Assembly: GCA_964394685.1 (NCBI GenBank)
Contig: CAYMYO010000003.1
Span: 16,218-80,217, forward strand
Origin: an uncultured Gammaproteobacteria bacterium
GTDB taxonomy: Bacteria; Patescibacteriota; Microgenomatia; UBA10105; UBA927
Reading direction: 5' to 3'
DNA: 64,000 nt
Part shown: positions 5,280-56,962 of the stretch, piece after piece
Numbering within the stretch: position 1 is the stretch's first letter
How the letters are laid out: every line of letters begins with the position of its first letter
Translations under genes and position numbers: made by a program
The notes under the pieces: generated by a model
The model's input: only the letters and a program-made list of their open reading frames with translations
The model's database searches: none
Told to the model about the DNA's origin: nothing

Positions 5280-6653
5280 ATGGAACCAAACACAATTTGG
5301 AAAGCGGTTTTATCAGAACTTGAAATTTCCGTTTCAAAAGCCATCTATCAAACGCAATTTGCTCATAGTGAATTATTATCCCTGAAAGACGGCGTTGCGA
5401 CGGTTGGATTAAATAATCCGCTTGTCAGAACCATGGTGGAAACCCGATATTACTCTCTCGTAAAGAGCATCTTGGATCATCACACAAATTCAAACATCAG
5501 CATTGTTTTTGTTGTTACCCAAAAAAAACTCGCGCTTTCTGACAAAGAAGCCGGGCCGTTGTTCTCTCAATCAACCATGGAATCTCCCCATGCCGATGCG
5601 GCAAGTGCCGCAAAACGCATGCATATACGGCCAGAATTTACATTTGAAACGTTTGCTGTTTCCACAACCAATCAAATTGCCTATGCTGCGGCTTCCGCTG
5701 TTGCAAAGTCTCCGGGGAGCGCATATAACCCTTTGTTTTTTTATGGTGGGGTGGGGGTAGGGAAAACACACCTCATGCACGCTGTTGCTAATATGCTTCT
5801 TTCCAAAAAACCAACGTCGCGCATTGTGTATTGTGCCGGAGAAGAATTTTTAAACGACATTATTGAAGCAATTCAAACAAAATCCGTTCGATTATTTAAA
5901 CAGAGGTATCGCTCCGCAGAACTGCTCCTTGTTGATGATGTTCAATTTATTGCAGGAAAACAAACAGCACAGGAAGAGTTTTTCCACACATTTAATGCGG
6001 TACTTCGAGAGGGCGGGCAAGTCATTTTAACAAGTGACCGATCACCGGGAGAAATTTCGCGCCTTGAAGACCGTCTCAGGTCCCGATTTGAAGGAGGGCT
6101 CATGGTGGATATTTCCCCACCAGATTTTGAACTTCGCGCGGCGATTGTTAATATCAAATCGCAGGCAATTGGTCTTCAGTTGTCTATCGACTCCTCTAGG
6201 GTTATTGCAGCAAATCTAACCGATACGCGTGCCATTGAGGGGTTTTTAAAACGCCTTACCACAGAGGTTTCTACTCATAAAACAGAGCTTACGCCCGACT
6301 CCATCACAGCTCTTTTGTCAGCGCGCGGCGCTTCTCCTTCCTCAACAACCCCATCTTCCAAAAGGCGGGTTAGTCCACAAGAAATTTTAGAAGCCGTTTC
6401 AAAATACTACGACATAAAATCAACTGCTTTAAAAGGAATTAAAAGGGATAGACCCATTGCAAGACCCAGACAGCTTGTTATGTATTTATGTAAAGTTGAA
6501 CTTGGGCTCACGCTTGATGATATAGGAGGGATGCTTGGCGGAAGAGATCACACAACCATTATGCACGGAATTGACACAATTACCCACGAACTTTCAACAA
6601 ACGAGCGCTTACGAGATGCGGTGATGGGGATAAAAAAACAACTATGGGTTTAA
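5280..6653 (+). CDS. dnaA: chromosomal replication initiator protein DnaA
   Basis: Walker A GGVGVGKTHLMHAV, Walker B LLLVDDVQF, and sensor/box VII regions. C-terminal DnaA-box-binding domain (HTTIMHGI). Length 457 aa. Confidence 0.95.
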   Translation: MEPNTIWKAVLSELEISVSKAIYQTQFAHSELLSLKDGVATVGLNNPLVRTMVETRYYSLVKSILDHHTNSNISIVFVVTQKKLALSDKEAGPLFSQSTMESPHADAASAAKRMHIRPEFTFETFAVSTTNQIAYAAASAVAKSPGSAYNPLFFYGGVGVGKTHLMHAVANMLLSKKPTSRIVYCAGEEFLNDIIEAIQTKSVRLFKQRYRSAELLLVDDVQFIAGKQTAQEEFFHTFNAVLREGGQVILTSDRSPGEISRLEDRLRSRFEGGLMVDISPPDFELRAAIVNIKSQAIGLQLSIDSSRVIAANLTDTRAIEGFLKRLTTEVSTHKTELTPDSITALLSARGASPSSTTPSSKRRVSPQEILEAVSKYYDIKSTALKGIKRDRPIARPRQLVMYLCKVELGLTLDDIGGMLGGRDHTTIMHGIDTITHELSTNERLRDAVMGIKKQLWV

Positions 6654-17338: not shown

Positions 17339-17359
17339 TGATAAATTACAAATTACAAT

Positions 17360-17746
17360 TTGAAATTTGAAATGAAATCAGAAATTTCAAAAAAACCAAA
17401 CGAGAAAAAATACGATTTAGAAGAAAGAACAGCAATGTTTGCCGAACATATTATTGATTTGTGCAAGAAATCACAAAAGAATATCATTACCATTCCAATT
17501 ATTAATCAATTGATTCGATCGGGCACAAGCGTTGGAGCAAATTATTGCGAAGCTAATGGAGCCTCCAGTAAAAAAGATTTCAAGAATAAAATATATATTT
17601 GCAAAAAAGAATCAAAAGAAACGAGATATTGGCTTCGATTACTGGTTAAGGCGTTGCCAGAAGCAAGAGAAGATTGTAAAGTGTTATGGAAAGAAGCGAG
17701 CGAGTTCGTATTGATATTTGGATCAATTGTGAGTAAAACTGTTTAA
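17360..17746 (+). CDS. four-helix-bundle protein (TIGR02436-like, 23S rRNA intervening-sequence protein family)
   Basis: SVGANYCEANGASSKKDFKNKIYICKKESKETRYWLRLL matches the conserved core of the four-helix-bundle family commonly encoded in rRNA intervening sequences. 128 aa. Confidence 0.7.
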   Translation: MKFEMKSEISKKPNEKKYDLEERTAMFAEHIIDLCKKSQKNIITIPIINQLIRSGTSVGANYCEANGASSKKDFKNKIYICKKESKETRYWLRLLVKALPEAREDCKVLWKEASEFVLIFGSIVSKTV

Positions 17747-17803
17747 GATTTGAAATTTGTAGCTTGAATATTCATTTCAAATTGTAAATTTCAAATTGAA
17801 TTT
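17746..17803. repeat. palindromic/inverted-repeat element downstream of four-helix-bundle gene, partner of IR at 17345-17372
   Basis: CATTTCAAATTGTAAATTTCAAATTG at the right end is the near reverse complement of CAAATTACAATTTGAAATTTGAAATG at 17347-17372. The right copy is also internally palindromic (TTTGAAATTTG...CAAATTTCAAA). Confidence 0.45.
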
Positions 17804-17805
17804 TT

Positions 17806-18576
17806 ATGAAAAGCATAAATGTACAACAAGAAGTTGATCATATTGTTGCCTTTCTTCGTGACACATTCCAGAGAGTCGGCTTTTCAGATGCTGTCGTTGG
17901 TCTGTCGGGAGGTGTCGATTCAACAGTGTCATTTATACTTGCTGTACAGGCGCTGGGGATAGACCATGTCTATCCCATTCTTCTTCCGTACGGAGCGTTA
18001 AGCACAAAAGGAGTAATCGATGCAATGAAAATTATTGAAGCCACCCACATTCCTCTTACTCATGTGGTTCGGATTGACATCCAACAAGCGGTAGACGCAA
18101 TTGTGAAAGTAGACCCCATGATGGATAAGGTGAGAAAAGGAAACATTATGGCGCGCGTAAGGATGACAAATCTTTTTGATCAGGCAAAAAAAAGAAAAGC
18201 GCTCGTTATTGGAACCGAGAACAAAAGCGAACATCTGTTGGGGTATTACACACGATATGGAGATGAAGCAAGCGATGTGGAGCCCATACGGCATTTGTAT
18301 AAAACGCATGTATGTGAGCTGGGAAAATATTTGAAAATTCCGGAGGAGATTCAACATAAAACTCCATCAGCTGATCTCTGGCCAGAGCAAACAGACGAAG
18401 GAGAATTCGGCTTTACCTACAAACAGGCCGATGAAATTCTGTATTTCCTTGTCGATGAGAAAAAGACAGAAGAAGAGATCATCACCGCGGGATTTGAAAA
18501 AAACCTCGTTTCAGCAGTTGTGCATCGTTTATCCTCCAACAGCTTCAAGCACAAAACACCATATATATTAGCTTGA
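17806..18576 (+). CDS. nadE: NH3-dependent NAD+ synthetase
   Basis: PP-loop GLSGGVDSTV near the N-terminus. About 256 aa. Confidence 0.8.
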   Translation: MKSINVQQEVDHIVAFLRDTFQRVGFSDAVVGLSGGVDSTVSFILAVQALGIDHVYPILLPYGALSTKGVIDAMKIIEATHIPLTHVVRIDIQQAVDAIVKVDPMMDKVRKGNIMARVRMTNLFDQAKKRKALVIGTENKSEHLLGYYTRYGDEASDVEPIRHLYKTHVCELGKYLKIPEEIQHKTPSADLWPEQTDEGEFGFTYKQADEILYFLVDEKKTEEEIITAGFEKNLVSAVVHRLSSNSFKHKTPYILA

Positions 18577-18611
18577 GTATCGACTATGTATCGTCCAATA
18601 TCGTCTATTCA

Positions 18612-18735
18612 TTGAAAGTGACATTTTCGTTATGCACGTGCGTATGAAATACAGTACATTTTTAATCTCGGACCCGCCCTCGGCCCGCTTCGCCGAATCG
18701 AGGCGAGCGAGGCAAGGCTTGTTGAGGCTGATTTT
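18612..18735. repeat. cassette-boundary repeat A, copy 1
   Basis: About 120 bp (TTGAAAGTGAC...CACGTGCGTATGAAAT...CTCGGACCCGCCCTCGGCCCGCTTCGCCGAATCGAGGCGAGCGAGGCAAGGCTTGTTGAGGCTGATTT) recurring at 19542-19673 at roughly 95% identity. GC-rich core contains an imperfect palindrome around GAATCGA. Confidence 0.6.
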
Positions 18736-18769
18736 GCACAAAAGCACTAGATTGCTATACAATAGAAAT

Positions 18770-19156
18770 ATGAGTCAGACAGAAGTAATCCAATATTGGC
18801 TGGTTTCGGCCAAAGAAGCGCAAAAAACCGCAGAAGATTCGCTCGTTGATAAACATTATGATTGGGCGTTTTTCCTGTTTCATTTAACTATCGAAAAGTT
18901 ATTAAAAGGGCTTATTGTTAAACAAGACAAAACTCCATTGCCCATTCATGATTTACCGAAATTAGCAAGATATGCAGGCCTTAAGGCAACAGAGGATCAG
19001 CGTATCATTCTTGAAGAGGTAACAACATACAATATTAAAGCGCGATATGATGATTATAAACGAAAGTTTTATAAAAAAGTTTCAAAAAAAGAATATCAAG
19101 AACAATGGATTCGTGCGTGTAAGGAGATTATCATATGGCTGCAAAACGAGTATTAA
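18770..19156 (+). CDS. HEPN domain protein (toxin component of HEPN-MNT pair)
   Basis: Adjacent to and overlapping a minimal nucleotidyltransferase gene. About 129 aa from the ATG at 18770 (the ORF track extends upstream through the repeat). Helical HEPN-sized protein. An Rx4-6H motif was not verified by eye. Confidence 0.55.
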   Translation: MSQTEVIQYWLVSAKEAQKTAEDSLVDKHYDWAFFLFHLTIEKLLKGLIVKQDKTPLPIHDLPKLARYAGLKATEDQRIILEEVTTYNIKARYDDYKRKFYKKVSKKEYQEQWIRACKEIIIWLQNEY

Positions 19157-19464
19157 ACCAAGCGGTGGTGAAGGAAGTGAAAAAGTATGGAGCTATTCTT
19201 CGTGAAAAGCATATCCCATACGAACGTCTTATTGTATTTGGATCGCAAGCAAAGGGTTTGGCAAAGAAATGGAGTGATATAGACATTTGCGTTGTTTCAA
19301 AAGCATTTGGAAAAGACCCACACGCAGAAATGGTTAATCTTATGCGAGCGCGTGAAGATTCAGACTATATTATTGAGCCGCACCCATACAGCCCTGTCGA
19401 TCTGCAGGAAAAATACGACTCTCTTGCTTCAGAAATCCGTAAATACGGCATCACCGTAGTGTAA
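19135..19464 (+). CDS. minimal nucleotidyltransferase (MNT, antitoxin of HEPN-MNT pair)
   Basis: LIVFGSQAKGLAKKWSDIDICVV is the GS...DxD Pol-beta-like nucleotidyltransferase motif. 109 aa. 22-nt overlap with the HEPN gene. Confidence 0.7.
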   Translation: MAAKRVLNQAVVKEVKKYGAILREKHIPYERLIVFGSQAKGLAKKWSDIDICVVSKAFGKDPHAEMVNLMRAREDSDYIIEPHPYSPVDLQEKYDSLASEIRKYGITVV

Positions 19465-19466
19465 AT

Positions 19467-19489
19467 CTTGTCAGGATGTCACCCTGCCA
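19467..19489. repeat. cassette 3'-end repeat B, copy 1 (CTTGTCAGGATGTCACCCTGCCA)
   Basis: Begins 2 nt after the MNT stop codon. An identical 23-mer recurs 6 nt after the Fic stop (20974-20996). Confidence 0.6.
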
Positions 19490-19541
19490 TGGAGCGATAA
19501 GACAAGCTAAACAAGAAGAATATATCAAAAGATATCACTGT

Positions 19542-19673
19542 TTGAAAGTACTATTTTTGCCACGCACGTGCGTATGAAATTAAGTACATTTTAATCTCGG
19601 ACCCACCCTCGGCCCGCTTCGCCGAATCGAGGCGAGCGAGGCAAGGCTTGTTGAGGCTGATTTGGTAGTGTAT
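19542..19673. repeat. cassette-boundary repeat A, copy 2
   Basis: See copy 1. Ends in CTTGTTGAGGCTGATTTGGTAGTGTAT, which also recurs at 21006-21032. Confidence 0.6.
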
Positions 19674-19755
19674 TTGCTTTCATTTTCTTAATTTGATATA
19701 TTTTAATTAGATTAATTACTAGACCAATCATTAGACTAATAATTAGACCAATATT

Positions 19756-20967
19756 ATGACAAATTCGAACGTAATTCGACCATTTTCAAATATATTTCTC
19801 TCTCAATTTTTGTTTGCTCCCGAACAACTTCCATTTACCAATGATGAAATCATGGAGTTTGATCAAACGCTTTCAACATACGAACAGATATTTCTAAATC
19901 CCGATATAGAAAGAACGCTTATTAGTAAGAATGAACTATTAGCGTCATTCGCTATTTCAAAAGCAGAAGCATCACAACTTACAATGAAAGAAGCACAAGA
20001 CGTATACGCGCTTTTGGTAGAGAATTCACAGTATGATTTTATTGGGAAAAAATTGCGGGAGAAAAAGAAATTGACTCAAAAAGATCATGATCAGCTTGAG
20101 TTTTTCAATATTGCAAAAACATTTCGCATGTTTTCTCAAAAGAATATGGTCATAGAAGATATAACTCCGTCATTTATTCAAGAAATACACAGGCAGGTAA
20201 CCCAAGGCATGGATATATTCAAAAATCATCTTTCTGACTTTACTATCTATAAATCTGGTTTATGGCGGGACAATGATGATATTCGAGTGGGAGCGTATAT
20301 TCCTGCACATTTTGGCGATATACAAAATGGCGTGGATGAGCTTCTTTTGTATTTAAAAAAGAATCAAACACCAACCGGAATAGCTGTTTTTCACACTGGT
20401 CTTTATGGACTGCATCCATTTAATAATGGAAATAAACGGGTATGTCGCATACTCGAACACATGCTTTTTCGAAGTATTGGATTGAATGAAAAAAACTTAT
20501 ATAGCACATCGTATTACTACCACATAGAGAAAACTCGATATTACAAATATCTGTTGTTTTCATTGGAACGAAAAAATTTGAATCATTTCGTTTCATTTAT
20601 GTTGGAATCACTCGTTTTTTCTATTGTGTCTGTGTTAAAAACGAGTATTGAAGTAAAACGGAATGAATTTTTTCAAAAACAACAGATCGAAGGCGTCGGG
20701 AAGACTGTTTTAAAACCTCTTCTCAAACGAAAAGAATTGCAATTTAAGCATCTTGCAAAATACGCGAGTGGAAAAGTAGCACGGCAAACGTTAGTAACAA
20801 CGCTTCAAAGCGCCGTTTCACAAGGAATATTGATTCGTCGAGAATCTGGAAAAACAACATATTATCGTTTGAACCTCTCGCTTCCAGAAGAGCAAACCTT
20901 GGAACAATGGTTACAAACTATTCGAGAGCGGCTATCCTATATCCCAGATGATATAGCACTAGCATAA
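19756..20967 (+). CDS. Fic/DOC family protein
   Basis: Canonical Fic motif HPFNNGNKRVCR (HxFx[D/N]GNGRxxR). 403 aa with a C-terminal winged-helix-like extension. Confidence 0.75.
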   Translation: MTNSNVIRPFSNIFLSQFLFAPEQLPFTNDEIMEFDQTLSTYEQIFLNPDIERTLISKNELLASFAISKAEASQLTMKEAQDVYALLVENSQYDFIGKKLREKKKLTQKDHDQLEFFNIAKTFRMFSQKNMVIEDITPSFIQEIHRQVTQGMDIFKNHLSDFTIYKSGLWRDNDDIRVGAYIPAHFGDIQNGVDELLLYLKKNQTPTGIAVFHTGLYGLHPFNNGNKRVCRILEHMLFRSIGLNEKNLYSTSYYYHIEKTRYYKYLLFSLERKNLNHFVSFMLESLVFSIVSVLKTSIEVKRNEFFQKQQIEGVGKTVLKPLLKRKELQFKHLAKYASGKVARQTLVTTLQSAVSQGILIRRESGKTTYYRLNLSLPEEQTLEQWLQTIRERLSYIPDDIALA

Positions 20968-20973
20968 AAGCAC

Positions 20974-21032
20974 CTTGTCAGGATGTCACCCTGCCACGCC
21001 CGCATCTTGTTGAGGCTGATTTGGTAGTGTAT
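20974..21032. repeat. composite repeat (B copy 2 plus 3' segment of repeat A)
   Basis: CTTGTCAGGATGTCACCCTGCCA (20974-20996) followed by CTTGTTGAGGCTGATTTGGTAGTGTAT (21006-21032). Confidence 0.6.
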
Positions 21033-21045
21033 ACTTTATGTATCT

Positions 21046-24000
21046 ATGAGCGAGAAGAAAGAAAATGTTTCAGAGATAGTTTCACGATGGATTGGTGCGA
21101 TTGCTGAGGCCGCTGATGCAAAAAAAAGCAAGATTACTCCAGACACGCTTGAAGCAAGAGTTCAAAAATTAGGAGAGACAAAACATACACCCGTTGAGAG
21201 CTTTGAAACTCGTATTCAAAGAGAGCAACGAGAGGCAAAGGAATTTACAGACGCGATTCAGTCGAATCAAAAAAATATTTCTTTAGTGATGGAACAATGG
21301 AAAGCATCAAACAAATACGAAGATCTATTGCCTTTAGATAAAGCAAAAAATAAATTAAAGACAGCATGGAGCTTGTCTAAAAATCAGCCGACGTGGTCAG
21401 GAATAAGCAGTCCAGAACAAATTGAGTATAGCGCCGCGGCCGCTGAATATCTATCAACAGTTGCGCTTTTACCACAAGAACTTGCAGAAGATCCGAATGT
21501 TTTTTTCCACGAAACCGCGAAATTTGCCGCATCCATGAGCAGTGATCCTTTGGCTCGGGAAGAAGAATTAAAAATACTTAACCAGGCAATTATTCATCAA
21601 GAAAAATTAAAAGGTTTTACTTTAAGTAAAGAAGACACCATTTACACCCTTCGCGGATTTGTTCTGTATGACAAAGAACTAGATGGTGACATTTTAGATC
21701 CGGTTAACCAAGTTGAAGCAAAGAATTTTCTTACGGAAATACAAGGGAGAATTGAAACGAGAAAAACAGGTGGCATTTCTGCTCAAGACGAGGCAATGTA
21801 TTTAAAACGACAAGGAGATACCATTGCCGCAAGTGATTATTACGTCATAGATAATATCCATCCGTCGCAGAAATATCAAATTAAGGATAAAAAAGTTCTA
21901 GAACCATTCGAAAGAAGAATTAATCGTCGAGTTGCAGAATTGACAGAAATAAATAAAGCACAGCGTCAAGCAGAATATCAATCACGCACATTTGAAGGAG
22001 CAGAATTTAATACCCCAGAGGAGTTAAAAAAAGGAATCGAAGCTCATTTTCTGAGATTTGAAGCTCCAACCGAGGAAATAAAAGAGAAAATGCTACGTCT
22101 GAGTCCAGAAGACCAGGAAAAATTTAAAAAAGAAATAATAAAAGGGATACGAAAAACTGTTGAGAGGTTGGAAAATAATCCCGAAAATTGGCGTATTGGC
22201 GGTATAGAGCCACTTCCAAGATCATTGATGTCTTGGATGCTTATTTTAGAAGATATGGGAGACCATAAATTATATGAAAAGATACATATAGAGACAGAAG
22301 CAAGATCCTGCCAGCATGTGATATATGAAACTTTAAAAAAGGGTGGTTCGCCAAGTGATATGAAAGATTTTCAAAAAGTTCAAGGTGATTTTGATAAAAT
22401 GGAGTTTCAAGAAGCAATAACTCATATTCCAGGTATGGCCAAGACACAAATGTTACTTGATGAACGATATGAAAGAGTTATTAAGGGCGAATTAAATCCA
22501 GTAGAAAAACAAAAAGTAAAAGATGAAATCCTAACAATATTACGAGACGACAAAACAATTTGTGATACAGAACACACAGGGATAACACCAGAAGCAGCAC
22601 TTGAGCTGGCTACCCGACACTATTTTGAACAAGGTAGGGATGGATTTAAGTATAGGGAATACATTCGTAAACATCATCTCCTTGGGACAACAAAAGATAA
22701 ACATGGAAATACAATTTGGGTTGTTGATCCGAATGCTCCGCTTAAATGGGATCCATATCGTTTATTATATTGTCCTGAGGCAATGCCAGCGTTTTTTAAA
22801 TTTGGTTCTAGTCAAGCTGGAGATGTTAGTAAGCTAACATTGCCAAATGGTAAGACAATTGAGGCAGTATTCGCTCAAGGAGTTGGAGCAGATTTTTATA
22901 AAAGTCTACTGGATCACGGATTTGATTTAAAAGTTACTGACTATGTTTCTCGGAGAAGAGATTATGAACTAGAAGCATGGATTTCAGAACAATTAGATAC
23001 GAAACAGGAACGCGGAGGAAGTAGTCAAGTGATTTGGGAATTAGGGTCGTTAAAAAGAGATGAACGAGGAGAAGATTCCATAGAATGGAATGCACTTCAA
23101 AGAGAAATAATGACTAATGATCCAACATTAGGAGAGCTTCGCTCTTTTCAAAGACAAGAAATCCGTTTGAGTTATAATATCAAATTTGCAGATGAGTTTG
23201 GTGTGAATGTATGGTCAGCATATTCAGAAAATGAAAAAAATTATCTTCAAAACGTTCAGACTTTGCGCACTAAAGCGTCAAATCAAGGTAGAACAGATAT
23301 TGTCCAGGAGCTTGATGCATTAAAGGATAGATATACAGCTACTCTTGCCAGAGCACGAGAAATTAATGATAAGTTTAAGAAAGACGTTTGTGAGAAAAAC
23401 GGTATAAAACTAGAAGAATACGAGTTCGTCTATGGAGATTTTTTTCCGTCGTTAGCTAAATTTGACGAAAGTAAAATTCCATGGATGAGAGTAGGAAGAC
23501 TTCAGGAAAACAAAAGAGGTAACTATAGAGACCATATAAACGCACTTACCCCAATGCAACAGGTGGCTGACTGCGCCATATATCCATCAGAAGAGAATAT
23601 TTTGAAAGTAGATCATAAAGCTATGTGTGGATATACAACGCTAACAAACGCACAAAAACATTTGATGTACCCCGTTTTGCAAGCATATATAGATGTTCAA
23701 AGAGGGAAAGGACCATTTGGGTCTGAAGTGACAAGTCTTTTGGAAGTAGGGAAAAGTAAAGTTGCAAAAGCATATGATCAAAAATCCAAGACTGATTTGG
23801 ATATATATAAGATTGTTCGTCAGCTTGTTGCCAAGGGAGCTTTATCTCGGGATGTAGCATATAAGATTAGAGGAGGATTTGCCGGTCGTGTTAGAGATAA
23901 AATACTTGAATACGCTGACCCTGCGAGTTTGGTTATTTTGCTTGGAGCTATAGTTCAGGAAGAAGCGAAAAAAACACAAAAGGATTTAGAAAAAGGTTAA
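21046..24000 (+). CDS. large hypothetical protein (984 aa), Glu/Lys-rich, predicted largely helical
   Basis: Long uninterrupted ORF with no recognisable catalytic motif. Lies between the cassette array and the VirB6-like/pilin genes. Confidence 0.4.
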   Translation: MSEKKENVSEIVSRWIGAIAEAADAKKSKITPDTLEARVQKLGETKHTPVESFETRIQREQREAKEFTDAIQSNQKNISLVMEQWKASNKYEDLLPLDKAKNKLKTAWSLSKNQPTWSGISSPEQIEYSAAAAEYLSTVALLPQELAEDPNVFFHETAKFAASMSSDPLAREEELKILNQAIIHQEKLKGFTLSKEDTIYTLRGFVLYDKELDGDILDPVNQVEAKNFLTEIQGRIETRKTGGISAQDEAMYLKRQGDTIAASDYYVIDNIHPSQKYQIKDKKVLEPFERRINRRVAELTEINKAQRQAEYQSRTFEGAEFNTPEELKKGIEAHFLRFEAPTEEIKEKMLRLSPEDQEKFKKEIIKGIRKTVERLENNPENWRIGGIEPLPRSLMSWMLILEDMGDHKLYEKIHIETEARSCQHVIYETLKKGGSPSDMKDFQKVQGDFDKMEFQEAITHIPGMAKTQMLLDERYERVIKGELNPVEKQKVKDEILTILRDDKTICDTEHTGITPEAALELATRHYFEQGRDGFKYREYIRKHHLLGTTKDKHGNTIWVVDPNAPLKWDPYRLLYCPEAMPAFFKFGSSQAGDVSKLTLPNGKTIEAVFAQGVGADFYKSLLDHGFDLKVTDYVSRRRDYELEAWISEQLDTKQERGGSSQVIWELGSLKRDERGEDSIEWNALQREIMTNDPTLGELRSFQRQEIRLSYNIKFADEFGVNVWSAYSENEKNYLQNVQTLRTKASNQGRTDIVQELDALKDRYTATLARAREINDKFKKDVCEKNGIKLEEYEFVYGDFFPSLAKFDESKIPWMRVGRLQENKRGNYRDHINALTPMQQVADCAIYPSEENILKVDHKAMCGYTTLTNAQKHLMYPVLQAYIDVQRGKGPFGSEVTSLLEVGKSKVAKAYDQKSKTDLDIYKIVRQLVAKGALSRDVAYKIRGGFAGRVRDKILEYADPASLVILLGAIVQEEAKKTQKDLEKG

Positions 24001-29726: not shown

Positions 29727-29761
29727 GCTCCTCATACGACTAATTTATACTACCCTTTGTC

Positions 29762-30409
29762 ATGCTGAATTTGTTTCAGCATCTATTTATTATGTCAGAT
29801 CAACTAGTGCTCAGTTTTTATACGTTTGGTCGATCAATAATCGGTATTTTGACACGGCCGTATGAAACATACCGTAAGATTATTAATCACGGTTCATTGT
29901 GGGAATTCGTTCCGCTGACGATCCTTATTGCAAGCTATTTGGGTATTGCATCGCTTGTAAAAACTGCTGCGTTCCGTCCATACATTCTTACTAAGCAATT
30001 TGTTGTGTTGGGAAGCGCAGTGGGCGCAACATATATATTAGTTGTTGTGTTGTTATGGACAGTTGGAAAAATTGTTGGAGGGAAGGGGAAATTAAAAACA
30101 ATCGCTTTGGGATGGGCATATACGCTTATTCCGACGACAACATGGTTTTTGGCAACATCTTTTTTGTATATGCTTCTTCCTCCTCCAAGAACAACTCGTC
30201 CGCTGGGAATTCTTTTTAGCGCATCATTTCTTCTTTTTTCGTCTGTGCTTTTCTTCTGGAAAATTATTTTGTCGTACTTGACTCTACGCTTTAGTATGAA
30301 GCTCGACTTGCTTCGCATCAGTATTGTTTTTTGCATCGTTATCCCGATTGTTGCACTATACAGCATTGGAATGTACCGGTTAGGAATATTTAAAATTCCA
30401 TTCGTATGA
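29762..30409 (+). CDS. polytopic membrane protein (Yip1-like, uncertain)
   Basis: Five predicted TM helices in 215 aa. No catalytic motif. Confidence 0.3.
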   Translation: MLNLFQHLFIMSDQLVLSFYTFGRSIIGILTRPYETYRKIINHGSLWEFVPLTILIASYLGIASLVKTAAFRPYILTKQFVVLGSAVGATYILVVVLLWTVGKIVGGKGKLKTIALGWAYTLIPTTTWFLATSFLYMLLPPPRTTRPLGILFSASFLLFSSVLFFWKIILSYLTLRFSMKLDLLRISIVFCIVIPIVALYSIGMYRLGIFKIPFV

Positions 30410-46286: not shown

Positions 46287-47282
46287 ATGAATAGAGTGCA
46301 ATTAGATCCTGAAGACTTAAAGATGTACTTTGAGCAAATTAAAATCAAATCAAATTTATCTTATGCTAATTTTGCTAGCTTGTGGAAGATAAATCCTCGA
46401 ACATTTCGGGATTGGAAAAAAGGAACGTATTCTTTTCCCGAAGAGTTTAGTATTAATATTGGTCACCAATTACATGTTTGTCTCCCTTCGACTGCGATGA
46501 TAAAAAATGAAACTGAAATTAGGGCACGAGCAGGTAGAATTGGTGGGATTGTGAGTATAAAAAAATATGGGAATCCGGGAACAGCCATCGGGAGATCAAA
46601 AGGAGGAATGAATTCGCTGGTTACACATCAAAGAATGCGTACTGGCTTTAAAATAGCAAAAGTGTTTTCTGTACCACAACTAACAGCGCAATTTGCAGAA
46701 TTTATTGGCATAATGCTTGGTGACGGAGGCATAACAAAATATCAAATAAGAATAACATTGAATAAGATTGATGATAAGGATTACGTTGTTTACGTTAGAA
46801 AACTTATTAATAAAATATTTCGAGAATATCCATCGCTTGAGTTTAAAAAAGGGAAAGCGGTTGATCTGGTAGTTTCTGGAAAAAATCTTGTGCAACTATT
46901 ACTTTCTTATGGGCTCGTAAAGGGAGATAAAATTAAACAACAAATAAAAATACCTTCTTGGATTAATACTAGCGATGAGTTCAAGTTAAGTGTATTACGA
47001 GGGTTGTTTGATACTGATGGATCAGTCTATTTAGATAAACATTATAAAAAAAAGATTGTTTATAAAAGTATTTGCGTTGCTTACACGAGTTATTCAACCC
47101 CTTTACGGCTAAATATTTATGATACTTTACGTGAATTTGGTTTTTCACCTACAGTTAGTACAAAAAATAGAATTATGCTGAGAAAAAGAAAAGATGTTGT
47201 TAATTTTTTTAACTTAGTAAAATCAAATAATAAGAAGCATTTAATACGTTATGCACAATATTTGAAAATGTGTGAAGGTTAA
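46287..47282 (+). CDS. LAGLIDADG-family homing endonuclease-like protein (two-motif, single-chain type) with N-terminal HTH-like region
   Basis: Two LAGLIDADG-type motifs: FIGIMLGDGGI and LRGLFDTDGSV, about 100 aa apart. 331 aa. Stop codon is 5 nt before the tRNA-Ser(CGA) start. Confidence 0.7.
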   Translation: MNRVQLDPEDLKMYFEQIKIKSNLSYANFASLWKINPRTFRDWKKGTYSFPEEFSINIGHQLHVCLPSTAMIKNETEIRARAGRIGGIVSIKKYGNPGTAIGRSKGGMNSLVTHQRMRTGFKIAKVFSVPQLTAQFAEFIGIMLGDGGITKYQIRITLNKIDDKDYVVYVRKLINKIFREYPSLEFKKGKAVDLVVSGKNLVQLLLSYGLVKGDKIKQQIKIPSWINTSDEFKLSVLRGLFDTDGSVYLDKHYKKKIVYKSICVAYTSYSTPLRLNIYDTLREFGFSPTVSTKNRIMLRKRKDVVNFFNLVKSNNKKHLIRYAQYLKMCEG

Positions 47283-47488: not shown

Positions 47489-47992
47489 ATGGAAAAAGCG
47501 AATCGACAACCATTGGCGCACGTTATTATTGGTTTTATCGGATCAGGAAAAACGACATTTGCAAAAAAACTGGAAAAAGAAACCGGGGCGTTGCGATTTA
47601 CAAAAGATGAATGGGTAATTGCAATTTTCGGTCATGATCCAACCATTGATGGATTTGAAACATACGATAATCGAATCTCAAAGTTGGCCGTTGACGTAGC
47701 GCTGTATTGTTTAAAAGCTGGGAACGATATCATTATAGATGAAGGATTTTGGGTCCGATCTCAACGAGATGAAATTCGTAAGAAAATAGAAAAGGCCGGC
47801 GGAGAAGTTCAATTGTACTATGTAAAAAATACCCATGAAACGATGAAGCAAAGAATATCCAAAAGAAACCAAAAACCAACGGAGGACGCTTTTGTTATAA
47901 GCCAGGAAATGTATGATGGCTATAAAAAATATTTTGAAGAACCCTCACCTAAAGAAAAATGTATTATTGTTGAGAATATAGAGGAGAAGTAA
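47489..47992 (+). CDS. P-loop NTPase/kinase-like protein (AAA_33/zeta-toxin-like fold)
   Basis: Walker A IGFIGSGKTTFAKK at the N-terminus. 167 aa. Family not resolved. Confidence 0.4.
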   Translation: MEKANRQPLAHVIIGFIGSGKTTFAKKLEKETGALRFTKDEWVIAIFGHDPTIDGFETYDNRISKLAVDVALYCLKAGNDIIIDEGFWVRSQRDEIRKKIEKAGGEVQLYYVKNTHETMKQRISKRNQKPTEDAFVISQEMYDGYKKYFEEPSPKEKCIIVENIEEK

Positions 47993-50322: not shown

Positions 50323-50829
50323 TTAATGTCTCTTTTTAATTCCGAATTTATCCGCTTTTTGTATTTCCTCGATAGTTGTTTTGATCTCTTCAAATCCCTC
50401 TTGTAGAGTTAGTGTTTTACCACAATTATCACACTTAAATATTCCACCGTTTTTGCGCAGTTTTATTATTTGCTTTTTTCCCCTCAGCCAATTTTTTGAA
50501 TAATAAGCTGCCGTGTTGGTGGCAAGTTGTAAATTCCATTTTCTATTTGATTCTTCATCTGATAATCCATTGTCTGGAATGCTCCATTTTTTTCTTAGAA
50601 GAGCTATATCTTTTTGAAAATCAGGTTTGGCGATTAGAAGTTTCGTTCTTTGTTTGGCTCGTGTAGCTAATGTTTTGAAATATTCGTCTTTCATAGCCTG
50701 ATTATAGTGCAATGATGTCGCTTTAGGTTCAGGAATAGAGTAAAATACAGACAACATGAATACCGACTTAACCTTTATTACCAACGAAAAAGACAAGAAT
50801 CTTTCTGAGAGGTTCAAGGTACTCATCAA
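50323..50829 (-). CDS. hypothetical protein with C-terminal CxxC zinc-ribbon-like motif
   Basis: CDNCGKTLTLQEGFEE near the C-terminus. Probable start at the internal Met (about 50754), which removes the overlap with the divergent PLD gene. Confidence 0.3.
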   Translation of the reverse strand: MMSTLNLSERFLSFSLVIKVKSVFMLSVFYSIPEPKATSLHYNQAMKDEYFKTLATRAKQRTKLLIAKPDFQKDIALLRKKWSIPDNGLSDEESNRKWNLQLATNTAAYYSKNWLRGKKQIIKLRKNGGIFKCDNCGKTLTLQEGFEEIKTTIEEIQKADKFGIKKRH

Positions 50830-52270
50830 AGATACTAAATTCTTTGATGTTTTAGTCGGCTATTTTTATACCAGCGGTTTCTATGCCATCTACAAATCAC
50901 TTGAAAATACCGAGAAAGTAAGAATTCTCATTGGTATTAGCACGAACAGGGATACGTATAACCTAATTCAAAAGTCCTATGTTCCAGTACAAGAAAGCCT
51001 GCAATTTTCTCATGCCGAAGCAAAAGAAAAGTTTTCTGACACTTTAGTTGAGGAAATGGGCACTTCAGAAGACAATCACGATACAGAAGAAGGGGTCAAT
51101 AAGTTTCTGGAATGGTTAAAAAGTGGGAAGCTGGAAATAAAAGCCTATCCCTCGGAAAATATCCACGCCAAGCTCTATGTTATGACCTTTGCAGAGGGAG
51201 ATAGAGACGTTGGTAGAGTCATTACTGGTTCGAGTAACTTTACTCAAGCGGGCCTAATTGATAACTTGGAATTTAACGTAGAACTGAAAACTAGATCTGA
51301 CTATGAATTTGCACAACTTAAGTTTAATGAGCTTTGGGAAAATGCAGTTGATGTTTCAGAAAAATACATAGAGACAATCCAAACCAAGACTTGGCTAAAT
51401 AACACCATTACTCCATACGATTTATACCTAAAATTTCTTTACGAGTATTTTAAGGACGAGATAAGTCGAACAAGCGAAGTATTTTACAAATATGTTCCAA
51501 CAGAATTTAAGAAATTAGAATATCAAGAGCAAGCAGTATTAAATGCTAAAAAGATTCTCGGAATGGTTTTAAATTCAGACGAAAACACAAATAAAGGAGC
51601 TTTTGCCAAAGATGATTTAATTTCCGAAGTTAAAACAGACGTTAATACAAAGCCTTATATAGAAGGTAAGTACCTCAAAAAATATTTAATAGAGAAAACA
51701 TTATTTCTGGAATGGGATACAAAAAGAGTTCCCCATCTTTTAAGTAGACCTACTTTCCCTGAACTTTATAACAGGCCTAAAATAATGAGAGGCAGAGTAA
51801 CAGAAGGAACATATGATGATACAGGTCTAGTTAGTAATGACAGTATATTGCTTTTTCAAAGATTTGCAGATCTCAAAGGAGTTAAAAATAACAGTATTGC
51901 AATTAGCATACAAAAATTTAATTCTCACTCAAGGGAGGAACTAGAAAATATTTCTCTTAAGTTTGATCTGAAATATCTACTAGCAATAATAAATTCACAA
52001 TTTGCTAATGTTTATCTTAATAATATTCGTAGACATCGTTTAGAGAATTATTTTTACCCTGATGATTTTCGTAATCTTCCTATAGCGGAAATTCCCCTAT
52101 CTGAGCAGAAGCAATTTATTGATTTTGTAGACAAGATTATCGACTTAAAGAAATCTAGTTTGGAAAAAGATAAACATCAAGCACTTGACTACGAAAAACA
52201 AATTGACCAATTAGTTTATAAACTCTACGACTTAACTGACAAAGAAAAAGAAATTGTTGAAAACGCTTGA
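50756..52270 (+). CDS. PLD-family (HKD) nuclease fused to TaqI_C-like target-recognition domain, no methyltransferase motifs
   Basis: N-terminal HKD motif NIHAKLYVMTF...GSSNFTQAGL. C-terminal KYLLAIINSQFANVYL and QIDQLVYKLYDLTDKEKEIVEN match the TaqI_C signature that normally follows a gamma-class N6-MTase domain. No NPPY/DPPY motif found. Confidence 0.6.
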   Translation: MNTDLTFITNEKDKNLSERFKVLIKDTKFFDVLVGYFYTSGFYAIYKSLENTEKVRILIGISTNRDTYNLIQKSYVPVQESLQFSHAEAKEKFSDTLVEEMGTSEDNHDTEEGVNKFLEWLKSGKLEIKAYPSENIHAKLYVMTFAEGDRDVGRVITGSSNFTQAGLIDNLEFNVELKTRSDYEFAQLKFNELWENAVDVSEKYIETIQTKTWLNNTITPYDLYLKFLYEYFKDEISRTSEVFYKYVPTEFKKLEYQEQAVLNAKKILGMVLNSDENTNKGAFAKDDLISEVKTDVNTKPYIEGKYLKKYLIEKTLFLEWDTKRVPHLLSRPTFPELYNRPKIMRGRVTEGTYDDTGLVSNDSILLFQRFADLKGVKNNSIAISIQKFNSHSREELENISLKFDLKYLLAIINSQFANVYLNNIRRHRLENYFYPDDFRNLPIAEIPLSEQKQFIDFVDKIIDLKKSSLEKDKHQALDYEKQIDQLVYKLYDLTDKEKEIVENA

Positions 52271-53465
52271 TTCACAAAATATACGATTAACTAAAGGTAA
52301 GTATATGGGAACAAACTTAGATAATGATAATTGGATTCAATCTTCTGATGACAATTTTAATATCGGAGAAGAGACCTTTAATGATTTAGAAATCCACCCC
52401 ACCCCAATAAATAATTTTTACTATTTTTTTAACAAGAGTAAAAATAAATTAATTAAGCAATTCGTTTTAGAAAAGAAAGCCAAAGTCGATTATATATGCA
52501 AGGTTATTTTAATTAAAAAGGGAGATAAGTTTACACCCCGGCTTTCTTTTTCAGTTAGAAATAGAGCCGGAAAAATAGTTGAAGATTCGATTGTACTAAC
52601 AGAGATTGACACCCACTTGGTTAAGGCAAATATAAATTTAAATGAATGTCATGAAAACTTCTGGCACCTCATTTCCTTTTTGGAATCACTTCGACAAATT
52701 GAAATACCGAGAGAAAGTTTTTCTTTGGTCTCTCAAGCAGAGAGCGACATAGTTAAAGCCATAAGAGGACGCGGTGTCGAGAGCGTGTTAAGCATTATTA
52801 AGCAACTAGCTTTAATTAATGGTGTATCTCTGTCAGAGAAAGATATCAATCAAATATTAAAACGCAAAGAGAAGCTTACTTTGTTTGGCTCTTCAATAAT
52901 AGAACAATCATCTGATGAAAAATGGTGGCAGATTTTTTTTGAAAACAATAAATGGATATTTGGTTATGGTTTAAATTATCAGATTTTACGACAGGAACAG
53001 GATCAACCTCATTATGGAGGAACAAGAGTAAATGGAAGAGGCGGACAAATAGGAGACTATTTAACTTCAACAGTGGGAGATTTAAGTTTTACGGTATTAG
53101 TTGAAATAAAAACTCCCGACACCTCACTCCTCCAAGGAGCTAAGGAAATAAGATCAGGAGTATGGAGCCTTTCTAAGGAGCTCACTGACGCTTTATCGCA
53201 AATACAAGCAAATATCGATATTTGGGATAAGCAAGGGTCTAGACAGCCTGAAAATGTAGACGAGTTTGAGAAAAAAAATATATTTACCGTTCAACCTAAG
53301 GGTATTATAGTTATTGGACAACTAAGCCAACTTGATAGTAGAAGTAAAAGAGAAACTTTTCAGAGATTTCGAAAATCTATACATGGAATAGATATTTTGA
53401 CTTTTGACGAATTATTAAACAGAGCAAAATTTATTGTTGACGAAAAAGCAGAAGATAAAAAATAA
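52254..53465 (+). CDS. Shedu-like DUF4263 nuclease-domain protein
   Basis: EKWWQIFFENNKWIFGYGLNY, GDLSFTVLVEIKTP (D...E.K PD-(D/E)xK-like core) and KGIIVIGQ resemble the DUF4263 (Shedu SduA) conserved blocks. Overlaps the upstream gene by 17 nt. Confidence 0.5.
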   Translation: MLKTLDSQNIRLTKGKYMGTNLDNDNWIQSSDDNFNIGEETFNDLEIHPTPINNFYYFFNKSKNKLIKQFVLEKKAKVDYICKVILIKKGDKFTPRLSFSVRNRAGKIVEDSIVLTEIDTHLVKANINLNECHENFWHLISFLESLRQIEIPRESFSLVSQAESDIVKAIRGRGVESVLSIIKQLALINGVSLSEKDINQILKRKEKLTLFGSSIIEQSSDEKWWQIFFENNKWIFGYGLNYQILRQEQDQPHYGGTRVNGRGGQIGDYLTSTVGDLSFTVLVEIKTPDTSLLQGAKEIRSGVWSLSKELTDALSQIQANIDIWDKQGSRQPENVDEFEKKNIFTVQPKGIIVIGQLSQLDSRSKRETFQRFRKSIHGIDILTFDELLNRAKFIVDEKAEDKK

Positions 53466-54225
53466 AGATATGTCTCAATATTACAATCCAAACCGCGTGA
53501 GGAATAAATACGACTCGGGCGCAAAAGAGCTGTTCAGGTTGAGTCGGGGGAAGATTGATTTATTTATTAATTGTCCTCGTTGTTTTTATCTTGACCGCAA
53601 GCTTGGCGTCAAACAGCCGCCGGGATATCCGTTTTCTCTCAATTCCGCTGTCGATAAACTTCTCAAGAAGGAATTCGACATCCATCGAGCCAAAGGCACA
53701 CCACATCCGCTCATGAAAGCCTACGGCATAGATGCTGTACCACTTGCTCACAAGAAGATTGATGAATGGCGGGACTCACTAAGAGCTGGTATTACGTTTC
53801 AGATTGAAGGAACGAATGTAGTCGTTACCGGTGGCGTTGATGATGTATGGGTAAAACCTGATGGAGAATATATTATCGTTGATTACAAGGCGACATCAAA
53901 GGATGCGGAAGTGACACTCGATGCTGATTGGCAAATAGGATACAAACGGCAGATGGAAATATATCAATGGTTGTTTAGAAAAAACGGCTTCAAAGTATCT
54001 TCAACGGGATATTTTGTTTACTGTAACGGCGATGCTGATAAAGATGCTTTTGATGGTAAATTAGAGTTCGATATTAAAATTATTCCTTATACTGGCGATG
54101 ATTCTTGGGTCGAAAAAACAATTCTTGATGCGATTGAATGTCTCAAGGGAAATAAACTACCTGCACCTGGATTAGACTGCGATTACTGTAAATATCGTCA
54201 AGCCGTAAAGAAATTTGAGCAGTAG
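53434..54225 (+). CDS. Cas4-like PD-(D/E)xK nuclease family protein with 4-Cys cluster
   Basis: N-terminal CPRCFYLD, catalytic-core-like GGVDDVW...YIIVDYKAT (D...D/E.K), and C-terminal CDYCKY give the Cas4/RecB-nuclease-like Cys arrangement. Likely start at MSQYY (53470). Confidence 0.55.
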   Translation: MLTKKQKIKNKDMSQYYNPNRVRNKYDSGAKELFRLSRGKIDLFINCPRCFYLDRKLGVKQPPGYPFSLNSAVDKLLKKEFDIHRAKGTPHPLMKAYGIDAVPLAHKKIDEWRDSLRAGITFQIEGTNVVVTGGVDDVWVKPDGEYIIVDYKATSKDAEVTLDADWQIGYKRQMEIYQWLFRKNGFKVSSTGYFVYCNGDADKDAFDGKLEFDIKIIPYTGDDSWVEKTILDAIECLKGNKLPAPGLDCDYCKYRQAVKKFEQ

Positions 54226-54251
54226 TATGGTATGGACGGTAAGGAGAAAAA

Positions 54252-55556: not shown

Positions 55557-55572
55557 AAACAGTAATATTATT

Positions 55573-56894: not shown

Positions 56895-56962
56895 ATATTT
56901 ACTATAGAGCTTCTCAGGGTATAATCAAAGGGATTTCAGTATAGATCGTTCCTCTAATAACT

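Follow-up and report, generated by a model that had tools for sequence, protein, structure and literature searches.

How small accessory genes come to be strung together beside a housekeeping gene is the question raised by a locus of an uncultured CPR bacterium, in which co-oriented toxin-antitoxin (TA) and defence genes, all on the + strand, lie 3′ of nadE. The stretch of DNA analysed, called the window throughout, is 64,000 nt long and is chromosomal, with dnaA, dnaN, tmRNA, tRNAs and isoprenoid genes present; the array is near dnaA, away from the replication terminus. A sequence-only reading had described two repeat-bracketed cassettes, a HEPN-MNT pair and a Fic gene, and had likened them to an integron array without a visible integrase. 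The locus is best explained as an accessory-gene array of hypervariable content, set between nadE and a large gene beside type-IV-secretion genes, in a Microgenomates-like CPR host. The features of the window on which the argument depends are listed below.

17806 to 18576, + strand: nadE (NAD synthetase; Pfam NAD_synthase, 3.5e-68), left anchor of the array
18370 to 18387, + strand: site within nadE, GCTGATCTCTGGCCAGAG, codons ADLWPE, containing the palindrome CTCTGGCCAGAG; the displaced nadE 3′ remnants of relatives start here or just after
18578 to 18606, + strand: T, three TATCG(A/T)C heptamers 11 nt apart, directly 3′ of the nadE stop
18612 to 18662, + strand: E5 box, copy 1, TTGAAAGT..ATGCACGTGCGTATGAAAT..ACATTTT, holding an operator-like palindrome
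18663 to 18717, + strand: GC-rich hairpin insert, copy 1, strain-specific at this position
18718 to 18734, + strand: R-left, copy 1 of R, CTTGTTGAGGCTGATTT, 17 nt; a different promoter replaces the sequence to its right
18735 to 18763, + strand: promoter-like TGCACA-N17-TACAAT; the −10 box ends 9 nt 5′ of the HEPN ATG
18773 to 19464, + strand: cassette 1, TA pair of HEPN (18773-19156) and MNT (19135-19464)
19467 to 19489, + strand: pal, copy 1, the 23-mer CTTGTCAGGATGTCACCCTGCCA, starting 2 nt after the MNT stop
19490 to 19541, + strand: S spacer, TGGAGCGATAAGAC..ATATCAAAAGATATCA, which accompanies pal in several strains
19542 to 19646, + strand: E5 copy 2 (19542-19591) and GC hairpin copy 2 (19592-19646), from sequence comparison and folding
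19647 to 19673, + strand: R copy 2, CTTGTTGAGGCTGATTTGGTAGTGTAT, 27 nt, matched exactly at 21006-21032
19674 to 20967, + strand: cassette 2, Fic leader (to 19755) and Fic gene (19756-20967)
20974 to 20996, + strand: pal, copy 2, starting 6 nt after the Fic stop
21006 to 21035, + strand: R copy 3, full length, CTTGTTGAGGCTGATTTGGTAGTGTATACT; TTGTTG-N17-TATACT, with the −10 box ending 10 nt 5′ of the next gene's ATG
21046 to 24000, + strand: gene for a 984-aa protein, function unassigned, right anchor by synteny with related loci L041, L076 and L093

The HEPN-MNT and Fic gene calls of the earlier reading hold, with Pfam matches to HEPN (1.2e-18), to NTP_transf_2 (3.2e-10) for the MNT protein and to Fic (4.4e-13). 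In PADLOC the MNT of the window matches PDC-S09 and its Fic protein SoFic (4.7e-24), and the defence-type cargo as a whole comprises SoFic, PDC-S01, PDC-S04 and PDC-S09. The Fic leader carries tandem 12-nt ATTAGACYAAT repeats. The 984-aa protein of the right anchor had no match in the Pfam scan; its gene is followed 3′ by a gene for a membrane protein and then by type-IV-secretion pilins.

The repeats of the window

Every repeat described from the sequence (the two long elements, the 27-mer and the 23-mer) was recovered in place. The long elements, E1 (18612-18735) and E2 (19542-19673), are 82% identical over their first 51 nt and, after a 1-nt indel, 99% identical over the following 75 nt; for the latter part, a recent duplication or a gene-conversion tract beside R is the best interpretation. 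E1 contains only the first 17 nt of the 27-mer, namely CTTGTTGAGGCTGATTT, and the 23-mer CTTGTCAGGATGTCACCCTGCCA occurs exactly twice in the window. When three patterns (the 23-mer, the GC core and the 17-mer) were each compared with 100 shuffles, the observed copy number was matched in 0 of 100, the mean chance counts being 0, 0 and 0.31, respectively. Under loose matching, R, pal, E5 and the TATCGTC iterons had no further copies in the 64 kb. The repeats had been taken to mark the ends of genes, and within the 64-kb window no copy was found away from a gene boundary. The broader claim, that co-oriented TA and defence units are bounded by conserved repeats, is supported.

The boundary itself is not the 120-nt GC-rich element, as had been proposed, since all that relatives retain of it is the AT-rich 5′ box and the final 17-30 nt, without the GC hairpin. 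The element is a strain-specific composite of the 50-nt E5 box, the GC-rich hairpin insert and R-left. E5 is conserved in L035, L051, L057, L076 and L091, and the hairpin is missing from the E elements of L035 and L051. The GC core folds as an imperfect hairpin only modestly better than shuffled sequence (z of −2.0 and −1.4), and its apex matches 21 of 23 nt within the pal of L091, a different module in another strain. Two other origins were considered and rejected: the repeats do not overlap Rfam matches (gathering and permissive thresholds) or ARAGORN matches and so are not pieces of tRNA, tmRNA or a known RNA, and the 120-nt element is not a decayed nadE fragment, given that among the junction modules aligned to four nadE genes only L035-B gave a significant match, and L051-B a weak one.

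A nearly invariant junction sequence

R was found at 21 junctions in 11 loci. Every cassette in these eleven related loci, which come from about six distinct strain lineages in other metagenomes and MAGs, is separated by R, and all array-bearing strains have R 5′ of the conserved large gene as well. On the left R has a sharp edge in every case, at (C)TTGTT, irrespective of the upstream DNA, whereas its right edge is ragged, with divergence after TTT, GGTAG or GTGTAT; in several contexts the 17-mer R-left is sharply bounded at either end. The copies of R are without exception direct repeats, and inspection by eye revealed no dyad symmetry of the dif or lox type in R. Over 22-30 nt R is essentially invariant, compared with 72-92% identity of the adjoining orthologous genes between strain lineages, and its 17-nt spacer is as invariant as its hexamers. 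Because a plain promoter has no need of a conserved spacer, this invariance suggests that a sequence-specific protein, either a recombinase or a regulator, recognises R.

The position of R is that of a promoter. In most cassettes its TATACT ends 6-10 nt 5′ of the ATG, and the canonical promoters of the window (TTGACT-16-TAAAAT and TTGACA-17-TATGAT, each 6 nt 5′ of an ATG) have the same geometry. The substitute promoter in front of the window HEPN gene occupies the same position relative to the ATG as the promoter-like part of R does elsewhere. A consensus promoter scan of the window did not call R, because TTGTTG fits TTGACA at only three of six positions. Judged by its sequence, R is a putative promoter, TTGTTG-N17-TATACT, that would drive leaderless transcripts.

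The second junction element, pal, is a degenerate palindrome in the window and takes the perfect form TGTCAGGGTG-T-CACCCTGACA in relatives, with a length of 21-23 nt. Nearly all of its approximately 14 copies in relatives lie within 10 nt of a stop codon. It is found at roughly half of the junctions and may be present or absent at otherwise homologous ones; we regard it as optional because it is missing at the corresponding post-Fic place in L034. It is predicted to form a stem-loop and, with R, may make up a terminator/promoter junction. A stretch homologous to S is found in L035, L057, L076, L083 and L091.

Cargo and nadE 3′ ends in related strains

The comparison of strains proposed in the earlier reading was carried out, and cassette content does differ between relatives. 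Their cargo pool includes two HEPN-MNT types, three Fic types, a DUF4143 ATPase and a PRTase-like gene, and the flanks are constant, with nadD-nadE on the left in all relatives and the large gene beside type-IV-secretion genes on the right. The arrays are composed as follows.

Window: HEPN-MNT, Fic
L035: Fic, nadE remnant, Fic-MerR
L051: HEPN-MNT
L076 and L093-L098: HEPN-MNT, 352-aa Fic
L034: HEPN-MNT-A, ATPase, Fic, HEPN-MNT-B plus PRTase
L057 and L091: MNT-led arrays
L041-L050 (a more distant relative): empty site, 17 nt from nadE to the large gene, no R

The same cassette can have different neighbours. The HEPN-MNT cassette of the window recurs in other contexts in L034, L051 and L076, and its Fic unit is 79-83% identical in nucleotide sequence to the counterpart in L034 and L035. 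HEPN-B is preceded by Fic, PRTase or MNT-A, depending on the strain, and PRTase copies that are 95% identical have HEPN-A 3′ of them in one strain and HEPN-B in another. Cassette-specific DNA stops exactly at R, and the indels and replacements of cassettes between relatives are bounded by the junction motifs. The contig of L034 begins and ends in the same HEPN gene (HEPN-A), with a 37-nt overlap, which fits a four-cassette cycle closed through R; a circle, a tandem array and an assembly cycle are all possible explanations. Turnover is not fast, as the same array was kept in six samples of one population.

Some relatives also carry a displaced 3′ end of nadE within the array. The nadE 3′ fragment of L035 is 195 nt long, starts exactly at GCTGAT, nadE nt 565, and is joined in register to R-left; the two fusion partners have GCTGAT.T in common. 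In L083 the junction partner is pal, joined to the 3′ end of a second, different nadE allele; T and a further pal come next. The remnant of L051 is decayed. The remnants of L083 and L051 start at roughly nadE nt 570-594. The two good remnants (L035 and L083) retain intact reading frames of 59 codons; their identity is 71% between the two and 73-80% to live nadE genes, which indicates that independent nadE alleles were their source. Although their alleles of origin differ, the start of each is no more than about 30 nt from nadE nt 565, a coincidence that looks more site-specific than random. The displaced ends at the junctions of two relatives point to a candidate recombination-prone site inside nadE. 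T is found 3′ of nadE or of a nadE remnant in L035, L051, L057, L083 and L091 as well, and is absent from the empty-site relative L041. Local alignment of the window modules W-A, W-B and W-C detected no significant similarity to nadE, and the window has no nadE remnant.

Explanations for the array and its relation to known systems

What has been observed, namely repeats, variable cargo with constant flanks, junctions without attC features and nadE 3′ remnants in relatives, could be explained in several ways. The reading that we favour, with somewhat less than even confidence, is modular shuffling at R, like that of the PeSL cassettes of T4-type phages. Each unit is one gene or gene pair of a TA or defence kind, with R in front and often pal right after the stop, and units would be gained, lost and reordered by recombination between directly repeated copies of R. 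Such R-R recombination could loop out or insert promoter-plus-gene modules without an adjacent integrase, and we infer that no dedicated enzyme is involved. Shuffling is favoured because the same cassette is found with different neighbours, the flanks are fixed and the edge of R is sharp. It is counted against this reading that RecA-type recombination would have only a short stretch of 22-30 identical nt to work on. The invariant spacer of R, the failure of the consensus scan to call R, the closeness of both good remnants to nadE nt 565 and the stability of the array in six samples also speak against it.

The main rival, a real possibility that we nevertheless consider improbable on balance, is that R, alone or together with pal, is a simple recognition site of a dedicated site-specific recombinase whose gene lies elsewhere in the genome. 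The nadE segment from nt 565 to 578 (GCTGATCTCTGGCC) would then be the primary or a secondary chromosomal target, and integrase-less mini-islands would insert serially, and some of them would bring a replacement 3′ end for nadE, so that the old end is displaced. The in-register fusion of R-left at nt 565 in L035, with GCTGAT.T in both partners, the pal fusion to another allele in L083, the decayed remnant in L051 and the intact frames of independent origin in the good remnants are all in keeping with this view, as are the conservation of all 30 nt of R and the sharpness of R-left on both sides. The T iterons, which accompany arrays and not the empty site, resemble arm-type sites in their helical spacing, and pal has the geometry of a recombinase core, with inverted arms of 8-10 bp. 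Yet the Pfam scan of the window, covering nearly all non-nested ORFs of at least 110 aa, detected no recombinase, integrase or transposase domain, which bears out the earlier remark that no integrase is nearby; the gene tables of L076 and L093-L098 contain no recombinase beside the arrays; and the cassettes encode only HEPN, MNT, Fic, ATPase or PRTase-like proteins. R itself lacks dyad symmetry by eye and has a ragged right edge, the remnant junctions are of two types (R-left and pal), pal is dispensable at homologous junctions and the window is without a remnant. Elements of the icd/e14 type would be a precedent for this rival. Phage 21 and e14 integrate at icd, bring a replacement 3′ end and displace the old one, and likewise the relatives have a displaced nadE 3′ fragment with an intact frame at the far junction and a live nadE that is intact; however, an array unit measures only some 1-1.5 kb and lacks an integrase gene, and the lack of a remnant in the window and the two kinds of junction set the array further apart. 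Modules of the pdif/Xer kind are small, often TA modules with a short conserved site that are moved by recombinases encoded elsewhere, and to this extent they are similar. The dif site has 28 nt, with 11-nt inverted arms around a 6-nt spacer, and pdif sites alternate in orientation, whereas R shows no such 11-6-11 arms on inspection and occurs as direct repeats only, at a locus near dnaA and not at the terminus.

It is unlikely, in our estimation, that the repeats have no role in mobility. In that case R, E5, T and pal would regulate a single regulon and would have been co-opted, or duplicated together with the genes. Strain differences would then be due to deletions and to ordinary horizontal transfer, with homologous recombination taking place in the core genes on either side. 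The conserved flanking genes could indeed anchor replacement of the whole array, R may be just the regulated promoter of the large gene that it always precedes, and the array was stable in the six samples of one population. Replacement of whole arrays leaves unexplained, however, why one cassette has different immediate neighbours, why cassette-specific DNA ends exactly at R and why nadE 3′ ends are duplicated. Defence islands and hotspots also accumulate defence-type cargo between conserved flanking genes, but they are without an invariant 30-nt sequence between every gene. A still poorer candidate, to which we attach very little weight, is a chance gathering of generic REP/MITE-like elements scattered genome-wide. 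Like REP elements, pal and the GC hairpins are small palindromes just after stop codons, and the hairpin apex occurs in two different modules; against this, all copies within the 64 kb are at one locus. A scan of 185,579 species-representative genomes with CTTGTTGAGGCTGATTTKG gave 30 matches, all single chance matches with dissimilar flanks. The 19-mer of R had 39 metagenome matches; approximately 30 were not arrays (7 of them read as coding sequence for a DNA methylase motif, ..IVEADLV.., and the rest as unrelated chance matches), and every real one was the same kind of array. Neither a search of viral contigs with the 23-mer and R nor a blastn comparison of the region with plasmids and phages yielded a match.

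That the array is a true integron remnant (CALIN), an attC cluster without integrase in which the GC-rich repeat is attC, we consider hardly credible. The resemblance is real in that the cassettes are co-oriented and carry TA cargo, the repeat of about 120 nt has the length of Vibrio-type repeats, and GTTGAGG fits the GTTRRRY core at six of seven positions. The criterion used for attC was an imperfect hairpin of 57-141 nt with inverse cores R″ (RYYYAAC) and R′ (GTTRRRY) after each cassette. An inverse core CCTCAAC (at most 1 mismatch) was present within 150 nt 5′ of GTTGAGG in none of 20 R copies, the junction folds have z-scores mostly above −2 relative to shuffles, and the hairpin is missing from homologous elements of relatives. 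Some junctions are too short for attC, only 6 nt separating the ATPase stop from R in L034. The attC-like structure suspected earlier is therefore not borne out. There is likewise no Rfam match, although Rfam is not expected to include an attC model, and IntI is found neither in the window nor next to the arrays. Cassettes of integrons typically have no promoter, unlike the cassettes here, whose conserved junction looks like a promoter. The array is not an integron, and that reading is contradicted. Integrons and CALIN do share with it co-oriented, strain-variable cassettes of a gene or gene pair, rich in TA and defence functions, with a repeat at every boundary (Cury et al. 2016, PMC4889954), and CALIN shares the absence of a nearby integrase, IntI being lacking from CALIN by definition (PMC4889954). 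The array differs in having no attC (no R″/R′ inverse cores and no conserved hairpin), no IntI and no attI, and in that its cassettes seem to bring their own promoter, whereas integron cassettes use a shared Pc.

The term PeSL denotes junctions made of a promoter and a stem-loop; they lie on either side of non-essential ORFs in variable regions, and recombination between them produces indels and mini-circles (PMC2839356; PMC4122927). For T4-type phages, the recombination logic of these "mobile regulatory cassettes" has been demonstrated experimentally in their hyperplastic regions (Arbiol et al. 2010, PMC2839356; Comeau et al. 2014, PMC4122927). Here, too, short conserved intergenic modules of a promoter and stem-loop, both predicted, flank non-essential genes in a hypervariable region; the motif bounds indels and swaps between relatives, circles are possible and a dedicated recombinase would not be needed. 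The differences are that the array is on a bacterial (CPR) chromosome and not in a T4-type phage genome, that PeSL follows a loose sigma-70 consensus whereas R is one nearly invariant 30-mer, that the array transcripts, lacking a Shine-Dalgarno sequence, appear leaderless, and that the array is anchored to one housekeeping gene, whose 3′ end is duplicated in relatives.

CPR (Patescibacteria) genomes are tiny. To our knowledge, few mobile elements have been recognised in them and the exchange of their defence and TA genes is poorly understood; our literature search returned no earlier description of such an array in CPR bacteria, and we know of the PeSL strategy only in T4-type phages so far. 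At this locus an invariant 30-nt junction appears to supply a promoter to each incoming gene and probably supplies the recombination point as well. A more speculative proposal, which we hold tentatively and think doubtful, is that R, pal and the nadE site are the site set of an undescribed CPR gene-capture system, in which an unlinked, possibly new recombinase inserts and shuffles promoter-bearing defence cassettes at a simple 17-30-nt site and a conserved block of nadE codons is the chromosomal anchor. If this were true, the array would be a functional analogue of the integron made from unrelated parts. The recurrent breakpoints in nadE are a concrete candidate for an attachment site. R is also a practical search key, because the real metagenome matches to it were all this kind of array, and with it the cassette pool of the lineage could be catalogued. 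If the junction does supply both promoter and recombination point, then the PeSL strategy, or alternatively an integron-like capture without attC and IntI, would also work on a bacterial chromosome.

Repeats and setting of the array

All of the repeat positions reported in the sequence-only reading were correct, and they are as follows.

18612-18735: E1, first copy of the ~120-nt repeat
19542-19673: E2, second copy of this repeat
21006-21032: exact match to the final 27 nt of E2

In the alignment of E1 with E2, identity is 82% over the initial 51 nt and, past an indel of 1 nt, 99% over the other 75 nt; of the 27-mer, E1 has only the first 17 nt, CTTGTTGAGGCTGATTT. The 23-mer CTTGTCAGGATGTCACCCTGCCA is present in two copies, which start 2 nt past the MNT stop codon and 6 nt past that of Fic. 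The observed copy numbers of the 23-mer, the GC-rich core and the 17-mer were each attained in 0 of 100 shuffles (mean chance counts 0, 0 and 0.31, respectively). The GC-rich core folds as an imperfect hairpin whose advantage over shuffles is only modest (z −2.0 and −1.4), and neither Rfam nor ARAGORN gave a match within the repeats.

The identities of the HEPN, MNT and Fic genes were borne out by Pfam, as were the upstream neighbors nadD, a 23S-rRNA-IVP gene and nadE; the downstream neighbor encodes a 984-aa protein of unknown function. The cargo matched the defense or candidate-defense PADLOC families SoFic, PDC-S04, PDC-S01 and PDC-S09. The window is part of a chromosome: it includes dnaA and dnaN (5.3-7.9 kb), type-IV-secretion-like genes (~8 to 29 kb; VirB4/TraG-type ATPases, PrgI and many pilins), isoprenoid genes, tmRNA with SmpB, and tRNAs, and its nearest named relatives by protein are Microgenomates-group CPR bacteria. 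A scan that took in nearly all non-nested window ORFs of at least 110 aa yielded no recombinase, integrase or transposase domain.

Elsewhere in the window, a separate defense island (50756-59244) encodes a PLD/NgoFVII-like nuclease, Shedu SduA, a PD-(D/E)XK nuclease, a Schlafen AlbA_2 protein, DUF2726, and a PIF1-type helicase with an RNase H / RVT_3-like N-terminus. A LAGLIDADG-domain ORF (46287-47282) lies amid tRNA genes and is followed by a zeta-toxin-like kinase gene (47489-47992).

Modules at the cassette junctions

The ~120-nt element had been taken as the repeated unit, a view that was not borne out by the alignment of all junctions, which leaves R, the ~30-nt promoter-like repeat before each cassette, alone nearly invariant: (C)TTGTTGAGGCTGATTTGGTAGTGTATACT is conserved at 21 junctions from 11 loci. 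The left edge of R is sharp in every copy. On the right, copies cease to match after GCTGATTT (two cases), GGTAG or GTGTAT, according to the downstream gene. Cassette-specific DNA spans essentially start codon to stop codon. Orthologous genes beside R are 72-92% identical between different strain lineages, and R itself is identical. It is R, rather than the 120-nt element, that has been conserved. An R 19-mer also matches coding sequence in contigs L053, L054, L056, L063, L072, L081 and L082, which we take to encode a DNA methylase motif (..IVEADLV..) on unrelated metagenome contigs; flanks must be checked in searches with R.

R can be read as TTGTTG-N17-TATACT, with 6-10 nt separating the end of the −10-like box from the ATG. 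Other window genes have canonical promoters at equal distance without a Shine-Dalgarno sequence, and a substitute promoter before the window HEPN gene occupies the equivalent position. A consensus promoter scan did not flag R. We infer that R may act as a promoter. A −10-like box at this distance from the ATG, without a Shine-Dalgarno sequence, is seen at many gene starts of the window (e.g. 25523, 46287, 45558 and 40640), which suggests that leaderless transcription is widespread in the organism.

Outside R, smaller modules make up each junction in mosaic fashion. The palindrome, pal (in its perfect form TGTCAGGGTG-T-CACCCTGACA), usually lies no more than 10 nt from the stop codon and is optional among otherwise homologous junctions. 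A spacer of ~50 nt, S, is a further module. The E5 box, the 5′ ~50 nt of E1 and E2, includes a 12-14-bp palindrome, ATGCACGTGCAT, and T consists of three TATCGTC heptamers with 11-nt spacing after nadE. The remaining modules are GC-rich hairpin inserts. Because the GC hairpin of the window is absent from the E elements of the related loci L035 and L051, and because its apex recurs at 21 of 23 nt within the pal of L091, the 120-nt element resolves into E5, a hairpin insert and R-left, the 17-nt left part of R. Another small GC hairpin, CTGCC(N)GCCGGCAGGCAGG, lies in or beside pal in L083 (330-375), L076 (1390-1428) and L091 (6150-6175); very small GC-rich hairpin inserts appear to be mobile among the junction modules. 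The Fic leader of the window (19706-19753) carries tandem 12-nt repeats, ATTAGACYAATN, and these repeats are also present in L091 (~5350-5395) directly past nadE and T, where the Fic gene is absent.

Copies of the nadE 3′ end were also found at junctions. One such copy, 195 nt long and beginning exactly at nadE nt 565, is joined in register to R-left in L035, where the fusion partners have GCTGAT.T in common. In L083, a different nadE 3′ end is joined to pal, and T and a second pal come after it. L051 has a decayed remnant, and the window itself has none. The two good remnants retain open 59-codon frames; since they are 71% identical mutually and 73-80% identical to live nadE genes, they derive from independent alleles. 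Every remnant breakpoint lies within ~30 nt of the position corresponding to window 18370-18387, a stretch with the palindrome CTCTGGCCAGAG.

Related loci and their cargo

Related contigs from metagenomes and MAGs were reached via close homologues of Fic and NadE, and seven further contigs came from a metagenome scan using part of the repeat. The sequence-only reading had proposed comparing strains; cassette content indeed varies between them, and the flanks are constant, with a coupling-ATPase gene, nadD and nadE on one side and the large gene, a membrane protein gene and pilins on the other in all relatives.

Cassette content between nadE and the large gene
Window: HEPN-MNT, Fic
L035: Fic, nadE fragment, Fic-MerR
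L051: HEPN-MNT
L076 and L093-L098: HEPN-MNT, 352-aa Fic protein
L034: HEPN-MNT-A, DUF4143 ATPase, Fic, HEPN-MNT-B + PRTase-like gene
L057 and L091: MNT-led arrays
L041-L050 (more distant, NadE 74% identical): no cassette, nadE-large gene gap of 17 nt

The first 37 nt of L034 (1-4837) equal its last 37 nt, both within HEPN-A, and because these ends match, the four-cassette array assembles as a cycle, which is a circle, a tandem repeat or an assembly artefact. The MNT-A and MNT-B proteins share only 44% identity, yet both terminate in ..ASEIRKYGITVV. Over the last ~80 nt, the window (19408-19489) and L034 (3961-4041) agree at about 80-85%; the MNT 3′ end may be within reach of recombination or conversion.

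The IVP (four-helix-bundle) gene between nadD and nadE (17360-17746, within 17343-17797) is flanked by 49-nt inverted repeats (17343-17391 and 17749-17797; 71% complementary). This slot is empty in L035, L051 and L076, and in L041 it is occupied by a Fic-MerR gene with 82% identity to that downstream of nadE in L035. The nadD-nadE gap looks like another small slot of variable content. An unexplained 41-nt match (90% identity) joins window 29746-29786 (minus strand) to L051 2244-2282, in the intergenic region before nadD.

At L036-L040, a remoter Fic homologue (67% identical) has other surroundings, namely AbiEii, a polysaccharide-synthesis gene and, 3 kb off, a large serine recombinase. R was not found at this Fic locus and is, therefore, lineage-specific rather than Fic-specific.

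Possible routes of cassette exchange

The array is bounded by R, variable between strains, co-oriented and without an adjacent recombinase. The reading of it as an integron, with attC-type sites, did not survive inspection: the inverse core site was found upstream of R in 0 of 20 copies, most junctions folded no better than shuffles, the gap from stop codon to R is just 6 nt at some junctions, and IntI is absent from the window and from the surroundings of the arrays. By the definitions of complete integron and CALIN in PMC4889954, the array is neither, and integron or REP-like readings are, taken together, highly improbable.

Among documented systems, the array comes nearest to the PeSL of T4-type phages, promoter/stem-loop cassettes that bound indels and form mini-circles (PMC2839356; PMC4122927). 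One interpretation is that the R array undergoes similar, homology-driven shuffling, in which units would move through recombination between directly repeated R copies; we adopt it tentatively, with confidence somewhat short of even. The self-closing of L034 inside HEPN-A is compatible with PeSL mini-circles and proves nothing. The main rival, plausible if on the whole doubtful, is that an unlinked recombinase recognizes a simple site, either R or pal, and has the nadE site as its target. The invariance of all 30 nt of R and the recurrence of nadE breakpoints favor such an enzyme; however, R has no dyad symmetry and a ragged right edge, pal is optional, and no recombinase was found in the window or next to the arrays. 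That the repeats are regulatory and play no part in mobility seems unlikely.

We found no earlier description of such an array in the literature, and phage, plasmid, viral and species-representative genome collections gave no match. We rate the array as integron-like by outcome and PeSL-like by anatomy.
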